This document shows positions 21,140-21,580 of a stretch of DNA of 64,000 bases, piece after piece. The translations under genes were made by a program, and so were the position numbers. Source of the stretch: Escherichia coli. Lineage in GTDB: Bacteria > Pseudomonadota > Gammaproteobacteria > Enterobacterales > Enterobacteriaceae. The stretch lies in the NCBI RefSeq assembly GCF_050320075.1, contig NZ_CP190018.1; one strand, given 5' to 3'. Under the pieces are notes generated by a model that was not told where the DNA came from, ran no database searches, and saw nothing but the letters and a program-made list of their open reading frames with translations. Positions within the stretch are counted from its first letter, which is position 1, and the number at the start of each line of letters is the position of its first letter.

Positions 21140-21580
21140 ACGTAAACTTTTTCCGGTTGTTGTCGATATCTCCATATCCCTCAACCGGAAAATAATAATA
21201 CAAAAATGCTTAGCCCAACTAATAATCACCTAATCCAAACGCCTCATTCATGTTCTGGTACAGTCGCTCAAATGTACTCCGGATACGCGGTTCGCTGATT
21301 TCCAGGACATTGTCGTCATTCAGCGACCTGTCCCGAGTATCACGGGCCTGCGAATTCATCAAGGAATGCATTGCAGAGTGAAGTATCGAGTCACGCCATA
21401 TTTCGCTATCAGGATTCTGTATGATGGTTACATCGCCCGGCCCAGGGCTGTTTAGTCATCAGCGCTTTCTGACAGTGCTGAGATTTCAACCTGTTGCAGT
21501 AAAAATGAGTAGATATAGGGCAAGTGTGCTGCCAAACCCATCTTTTACGGGGTGAAGGTAGATTTGGTTTGAAGGGTATC

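Follow-up and report, generated by a model that had tools for sequence, protein, structure and literature searches.

The stretch between argW and the dsdCXA genes of E. coli, where csc sucrose genes are found in some strains, is in the literature a variable island (Jahreis et al. 2002 and Moritz & Welch 2006, both cited in PMC3032704 and PMC11251922). Several phages and islands also use the 3′ end of argW as their attachment site, and argW att duplications are present in many Stx2a and other phage records. One such element, in K-12, is the cryptic prophage CPS-53 (KpLE1), bounded by argW and the 15-bp pseudo-tRNA pawZ. Others are islands with a P4-type integrase, e.g. those in NT1F25 and AVS0093 (the latter a mosaic of more than 65 kb), whose attachment site is the argW 3′ end with a 19-22-bp core; their P4-like integrase is present at high coverage in 266 of 5426 genomes. 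Also pertinent is the distal module, yeeU-cbtA-DUF5983-DUF957-DUF4942, of CP4-type integrative islands, which points away from the tRNA gene. In each of the two CP4-type islands examined, intact DUF4942 is at the distal end as the last gene of cbtA-DUF5983-DUF957-DUF4942 (cbtA and DUF5983 being also known as yeeV and yeeW).

The window, i.e. the whole 64,000-nucleotide stretch of E. coli DNA that was analysed, contains the locus that is described in PMC3032704 and PMC11251922, with cscRAKB replacing dsdC and part of dsdX beside argW. Following dsdA (14448-15776, minus strand) is a 72-codon 3′ remnant of dsdX extending up to about 16011; homology to K-12 dsdX stops at 16011, about dsdX codon 373. 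From ORFs and RefSeq annotation, the sucrose cluster cscR, cscA, cscK and cscB occupies 16012..21139, with the gene for the sucrose permease, cscB, at 19892-21139 on the plus strand. A 441-bp spacer (21140-21580) then leads to argW (21581..21655, minus strand), which encodes tRNA-Arg with anticodon CCT (ARAGORN; Rfam tRNA, 63.4 bits), and beyond it are yfdC and mlaA, in that order. The csc cluster and the spacer together stand in place of dsdC and the 5′ five-sixths of dsdX. (Further along, between mlaA and fadL at the site of yfdF in other strains, is a 423-aa ORF of low GC, about 35%, rich in Asn, Asp and Ile [23894-25165, minus strand]. It is a variable replacement allele, given as ‘hypothetical protein’ by RefSeq in strain 746; one of the comparison genomes, L002, has yfdF.)

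A preliminary description of the spacer, made from its letters alone, characterized it as some 440 bp after argW lacking both an integrase and any ORF of 60 aa or more, and this was borne out. The longest ORF beginning with ATG, GTG or TTG in 21140-21580 is 50 aa, and neither the ORF list nor a Pfam search reveals an integrase gene or integrase homology there. A minus-strand frame of around 75 codons, ending ...MNEAFGLGDY and said to be without a start codon, was also pointed out. The frame is real, with 78 codons on translation (21222..21455; stop at 21219-21221), but it does have an in-frame ATG, at 21371, from which the 50-aa ORF (21219-21371, minus strand) derives. In strain 746, which is identical to the window across the spacer and from which the coordinates were mapped, RefSeq has a 60-aa ‘DUF4942 domain-containing protein’ (WP_223362157.1; 21219..21401, minus strand). 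On this mapping its first codon is ATA (21399-21401), which suggests that the annotation is a homology-driven call on a pseudogene. Many genomes have a RefSeq CDS at this point, and many others have no annotated feature. Length of the stop-free run is by itself no better than chance, since a run of at least 78 codons is present in 30% of shuffles of the 441 bp; it is the homology that exceeds chance.

That homology came from a Pfam search and from comparison of the spacer with E. coli genomes and DUF4942 proteins (blastn and tblastn), the latter close to a check that had been proposed. The 78-codon frame matches Pfam DUF4942 (PF13708) with E=1.5e-9 and 38.3 bits, versus a gathering cut-off of 25, and the match is limited to positions 5-62 of the 190 in the profile, less than a third of the domain; an intact E. 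coli DUF4942 protein has 281 aa and matches PF13708 1-190 at residues 87-276. By tblastn with two such proteins, the frame aligns to residues 76-151 of the 281, at 50-51% identity. With a full-length E. coli query there is a second HSP, in another frame and with in-frame stops, corresponding to residues about 33-70 (about 21416..21530, minus strand). This upstream, frameshifted pseudogene part has, by blastn, 80% identity over 50 bp to the DUF4942 gene of an island in L005 (NZ_CM146015.1). The blastn matches to many E. coli DUF4942 genes are limited to 21236-21437; at the DNA level the full-length E. coli genes are 72-75% identical to the fragment, and identity of 80%-90% is found in no genome.

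What the frame represents is not, as had been supposed, the decayed 3′ end of a gene. With residues 76-151 of 281 aligned, about 130 C-terminal residues are missing; about 30 N-terminal residues are also gone, and what survives amounts to some 40% of the gene. Because GLGDY is followed by a stop right at the junction with csc-specific DNA, that stop is not the native one. That junction is at about 21222-21236, with the distant blastn matches all beginning at query 97, which is window position 21236, and on its far side is an 89-bp cscB 3′ flank (21140..21228), specific to the csc locus and without DUF4942 homology. Moving away from argW, the layout of the spacer is an arm of about 40 bp, considered below, then DUF4942 residues of about 33-151, and then the cscB flank. 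Nowhere is there a complete DUF4942 domain in an intact frame. On the evidence of the alignments, the frame is an internal, 5′-proximal pseudogene fragment of DUF4942 that reads away from argW, rather than a member protein.

Searches for a nearer relative were extensive. In a word-indexed search of 5.8 billion proteins, the matches were confined to the same short E. coli fragments, without any close intact relative, and the best full-length match from exhaustive HMMER comparison with 1.84 billion representatives was 53% identical to the fragment and located on a 1.7-kb contig. Among the GTDB species representatives no relative was found by peptide patterns or a conserved 34-mer, and plasmids gave only mislabelled chromosomes and distant lacY/rafB-like permeases. 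There was no match in NCBIfam, and none in a PDB sequence search with intact DUF4942.

The distribution of the spacer is tied to that of the sucrose genes. It was found in 2644 of 5426 complete E. coli genomes, in 2623 of them at full length. When the query comprised the cscB 3′ end together with the spacer, and coverage of at least 80% was required, 2619 genomes had the spacer contiguous with cscB, as against the 2623 with it at full length; essentially, the spacer never occurs without cscB. The preliminary description had taken the spacer as a scar, a reading incompatible with its being conserved, without coding homology, in genomes that have neither csc nor a prophage. With linkage of 2619 versus 2623, nothing of that kind was seen and the scar reading stands.

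Decay is evident from several features. In seven variants, the spacer has diverged 2-3 times as much as the neighbouring 600 bp at the cscB 3′ end, and 2-bp and 6-bp indels are present, with the upstream DUF4942 part showing both. Premature stops interrupt the frame in L013 and in the class of variants met most often (L002, L010); the window and several lineages have it open. Its pN/pS is about 0.6, a value from few sites. A preserved frame under purifying selection, as for a functional gene, is not what is found. In natural isolates IS1 is present within the spacer, and both this insertion and an ISEc46-associated replacement of the spacer are tolerated.

At the other end, the 40 nt directly 3′ of argW (21541..21580, minus strand) are a putative remnant of the integrase-side (attL) arm of an island with a P4-type integrase. 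The comparison was ungapped and anchored at the tRNA end, with 5000 shuffles as reference. Against the arm beside the P4-like integrase, identity is 24/40 with NT1F25 and 23/40 with AVS0093, i.e. about 60% and in register over just 40 nt, values reached by 0 and 2 of the 5000 shuffles, respectively. In contrast, the K-12 CPS-53 attL arm gives 13/40 and the native K-12 flank after pawZ gives 9/40, both at chance level. At 21541-21580, then, the att core is followed directly by a left arm of island type, and it is exactly at the tRNA 3′ end that the spacer departs from other argW contexts. As an alternative to an attL arm, the 51 bp of 21530-21580 could be very diverged DUF4942 codons 16-32.

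A counterpart at the far end is a different matter. Neither a 15-mer nor a 21-mer from the argW 3′ end, with up to 3 mismatches allowed, has a relevant copy in the window, and relaxed matching of 15-25-mers over 15701-21580 did no better than with shuffles. The lack of a direct repeat, noted at the outset, thus held, and the partial repeat that relaxed matching had been hoped to uncover as an att scar did not rise above shuffles. With no attR in 15701-21580, the right boundary of an island cannot be shown. Two hallmarks of a resident island, a tyrosine integrase beside the tRNA 3′ end and a direct repeat at the far end, are both lacking.

In the csc-specific part of the spacer, 10 bp after the cscB stop, a repeat search revealed a perfect 11-bp inverted repeat, TTTTCCGGTTG / CAACCGGAAAA (21149..21192). 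As RNA it folds at -18.9 kcal/mol (z=-3.84), and there is no U tract on either strand; the terminator scan did not call it. Its stems are kept in six of seven variants, the exception, L013, having a single substitution, in the left arm, by which a U-A pair becomes C-A. Candidate roles are mRNA 3′ end formation or stabilization, or a binding site. Nothing in the spacer was reported by the promoter and terminator scan, whose sole terminator-like site is inside cscB, and an Rfam scan matched only the tRNA, with no RNA family in the spacer.

Some genomes have further elements at argW, and their placement is informative. In NT1F25 (NZ_CP075472.1) the order is spacer, a 19-bp copy of the argW 3′ end, a CP4-like island spanning yeeU to a P4-like integrase pseudogene, a degenerate att copy and a recombinase/ParA element. 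(The two elements are in tandem, at L013 20876-40870 and L014 1-5001, and the CP4-like island has the defence-type genes qatD, a SLATT domain, DUF262 and a DEAD/DEAH helicase fragment.) The att-proximal end of the recombinase/ParA element resembles one beside the spacer in O157:H7, and in O157:H7 SS52 an att copy and a related gene of the recombinase family are found directly beside the spacer. With att copies located between spacer and elements in both NT1F25 and SS52, new elements enter between the tRNA and the spacer, and the spacer was already the outer flank prior to the tandem insertions. The NT1F25 island was considered as a preserved form of an ancestral island at this locus, and ruled out. 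It is separated from the spacer by the 19-bp att copy and is a later insertion.

Another type of rearrangement is found in an ETEC isolate, L003 (NZ_LR882990.1), in which the first 77 bp of the spacer are kept beside cscB and the rest is replaced. Located there (L003 7078-9123) are ISEc46, with its IS200/IS605 TnpA and its TnpB RNA-guided endonuclease, and, beside argW, a CPS-53-type integrase cut down to its N-terminal 94 codons; the arrangement probably arose by deletion from a prophage that had inserted at argW. The cscB-argW spacer is also contained in four ‘Escherichia phage’ records, ON470608.1, ON470622.1, ON470589.1 and ON470594.1, two of which include argW as well. Most likely it is there as host flanking DNA within predicted prophage records, and these four may be the source of the remark in PMC11251922 on csc in coliphage genomes.

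Taken together, the identity of the fragment, its decay, its strict linkage to csc and the similarity of the arm point with good probability to the spacer being a non-functional relic of a CP4-type island, with a P4-like tyrosine integrase, that was once in the argW site, and of which an integrase-side arm of about 40 bp and an internal stretch of DUF4942 survive. The starting event would have been integration of such an island at argW. A single deletion would then have taken out everything between a point just beyond the attL core, still short of the integrase gene, and about codon 33 of DUF4942, and a second rearrangement would have joined DUF4942, at about codon 151, to DNA downstream of cscB, at the cost of dsdC, most of dsdX and the right end of the island (attR). 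The csc genes would have been either cargo of the island or a replacement of its right end. Subsequently the relic would have drifted neutrally in all csc-positive lineages, being now only the outer flank of the argW attachment site. The preliminary description had the spacer as a scar marking the boundary of the csc island or of an older excised element, and its first part, a mobile-element scar at the csc boundary, agrees with the DUF4942 fragment, the likeness of the arm and the linkage to cscB. Simple excision does not survive scrutiny. Precise excision would leave nothing, and therefore internal deletions are required.

How the sucrose genes themselves arrived is more doubtful. That a CP4-type island brought them into E. 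coli as its cargo, by site-specific integration at argW, with the spacer as the sole surviving trace, is put forward tentatively, and falls short of an even chance; if correct, it would account both for csc being exactly at the tRNA end and for use of sucrose and of D-serine being mutually exclusive. A raffinose/sucrose-like block in L005 (9224-15413; a GH32 hydrolase, an MFS transporter, an alpha-galactosidase and a LacI-type regulator) sits in a truncated cbtA within cbtA-DUF5983-DUF957-DUF4942 of another CP4-type island, and by analogy serves as a parallel for sugar cargo beside DUF4942; such cargo does occur. The same precedent, of sugar-catabolism genes inside this gene module, can be cited for a different origin, in which the DUF4942 fragment came already truncated in one foreign block with cscRAKB (e.g. 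as a piece of a donor chromosome or plasmid) and was placed beside argW by illegitimate or homologous recombination. Identity of the fragment to any other DUF4942 is only 50-53% for protein and 72-75% for DNA, suggestive of a foreign lineage, and the fragment is never separated from csc. However, entry mediated by an integrase is indicated by the spacer beginning exactly at the argW 3′ end and by the likeness of its 40 nt to the attL arm of argW-specific P4-type islands, and no donor with csc beside DUF4942 was found among GTDB species representatives or plasmids. Arrival as such a block is accordingly judged unlikely. Against the relic of an argW island, for its part, is that present-day P4-integrase islands at argW end in yeeU and a short arm, and not in DUF4942.

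That the spacer has a present function, with the 50-60-aa ORF giving a micro-protein or a transcript serving as regulatory RNA acting on csc or argW, is very improbable. The frame being open in the window and in several lineages, its RefSeq annotation as a CDS in many genomes, retention of the spacer in 2623 genomes and a pN/pS slightly below 1 are what such a function would predict. Set against these are the stops in the commonest class and L013, representation of under a third of the Pfam domain, the natural IS1 insertion and replacement of most of the spacer, the lack of any promoter-like site or Rfam family within it, and the ease with which shuffles give as long a stop-free run. Still less credible is a spacer consisting simply of the ancestral intergenic DNA that lies downstream of argW, with a frame open by chance. 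Run length alone is indeed not significant, and neither integrase nor att repeat is present, but the DUF4942 homology is significant, K-12 lacks the spacer and has an unrelated flank after pawZ, and the spacer is essentially absent from csc-negative genomes; this explanation is refuted.

The wider meaning of the spacer is modest. It is a commonplace scar of evolution; RefSeq's automatic annotation has already picked it up, its locus was known as a variable island, and the general picture of tRNA-linked islands is unchanged. The argW-side boundary of the csc island is fixed to the base, a small matter, and a site-specific route for the sucrose genes into the argW hotspot is suggested. From a practical perspective, the RefSeq ‘DUF4942 domain-containing protein’ CDS at this position in many genomes is to be regarded as a pseudogene fragment.

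Comparison with the known systems puts the spacer among them as follows. For the csc variable island, PMC3032704 and PMC11251922 give the gene content, and in what is searchable of them the DUF4942 and attL-arm nature of the cscB-argW spacer is not described. With the DUF4942 genes of CP4-type islands there is homology over residues of about 33-151 and the same reading direction, away from the tRNA gene; the differences are that all that is left of the distal module is part of its last gene, frameshifted and at about 50% protein identity to intact members, with none of the neighbouring module genes, as would suit a remnant and not an island. With the P4-type-integrase islands at argW the attachment site and the arm are in common, and by contrast with them the window has no integrase, cargo or attR copy. 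CPS-53 is an unrelated element and keeps intS and a recognizable att repeat (pawZ), with dsdCXA intact, unlike the spacer locus; it occupies the same place, between argW and the dsd genes, and it too is a mobile element in decay.
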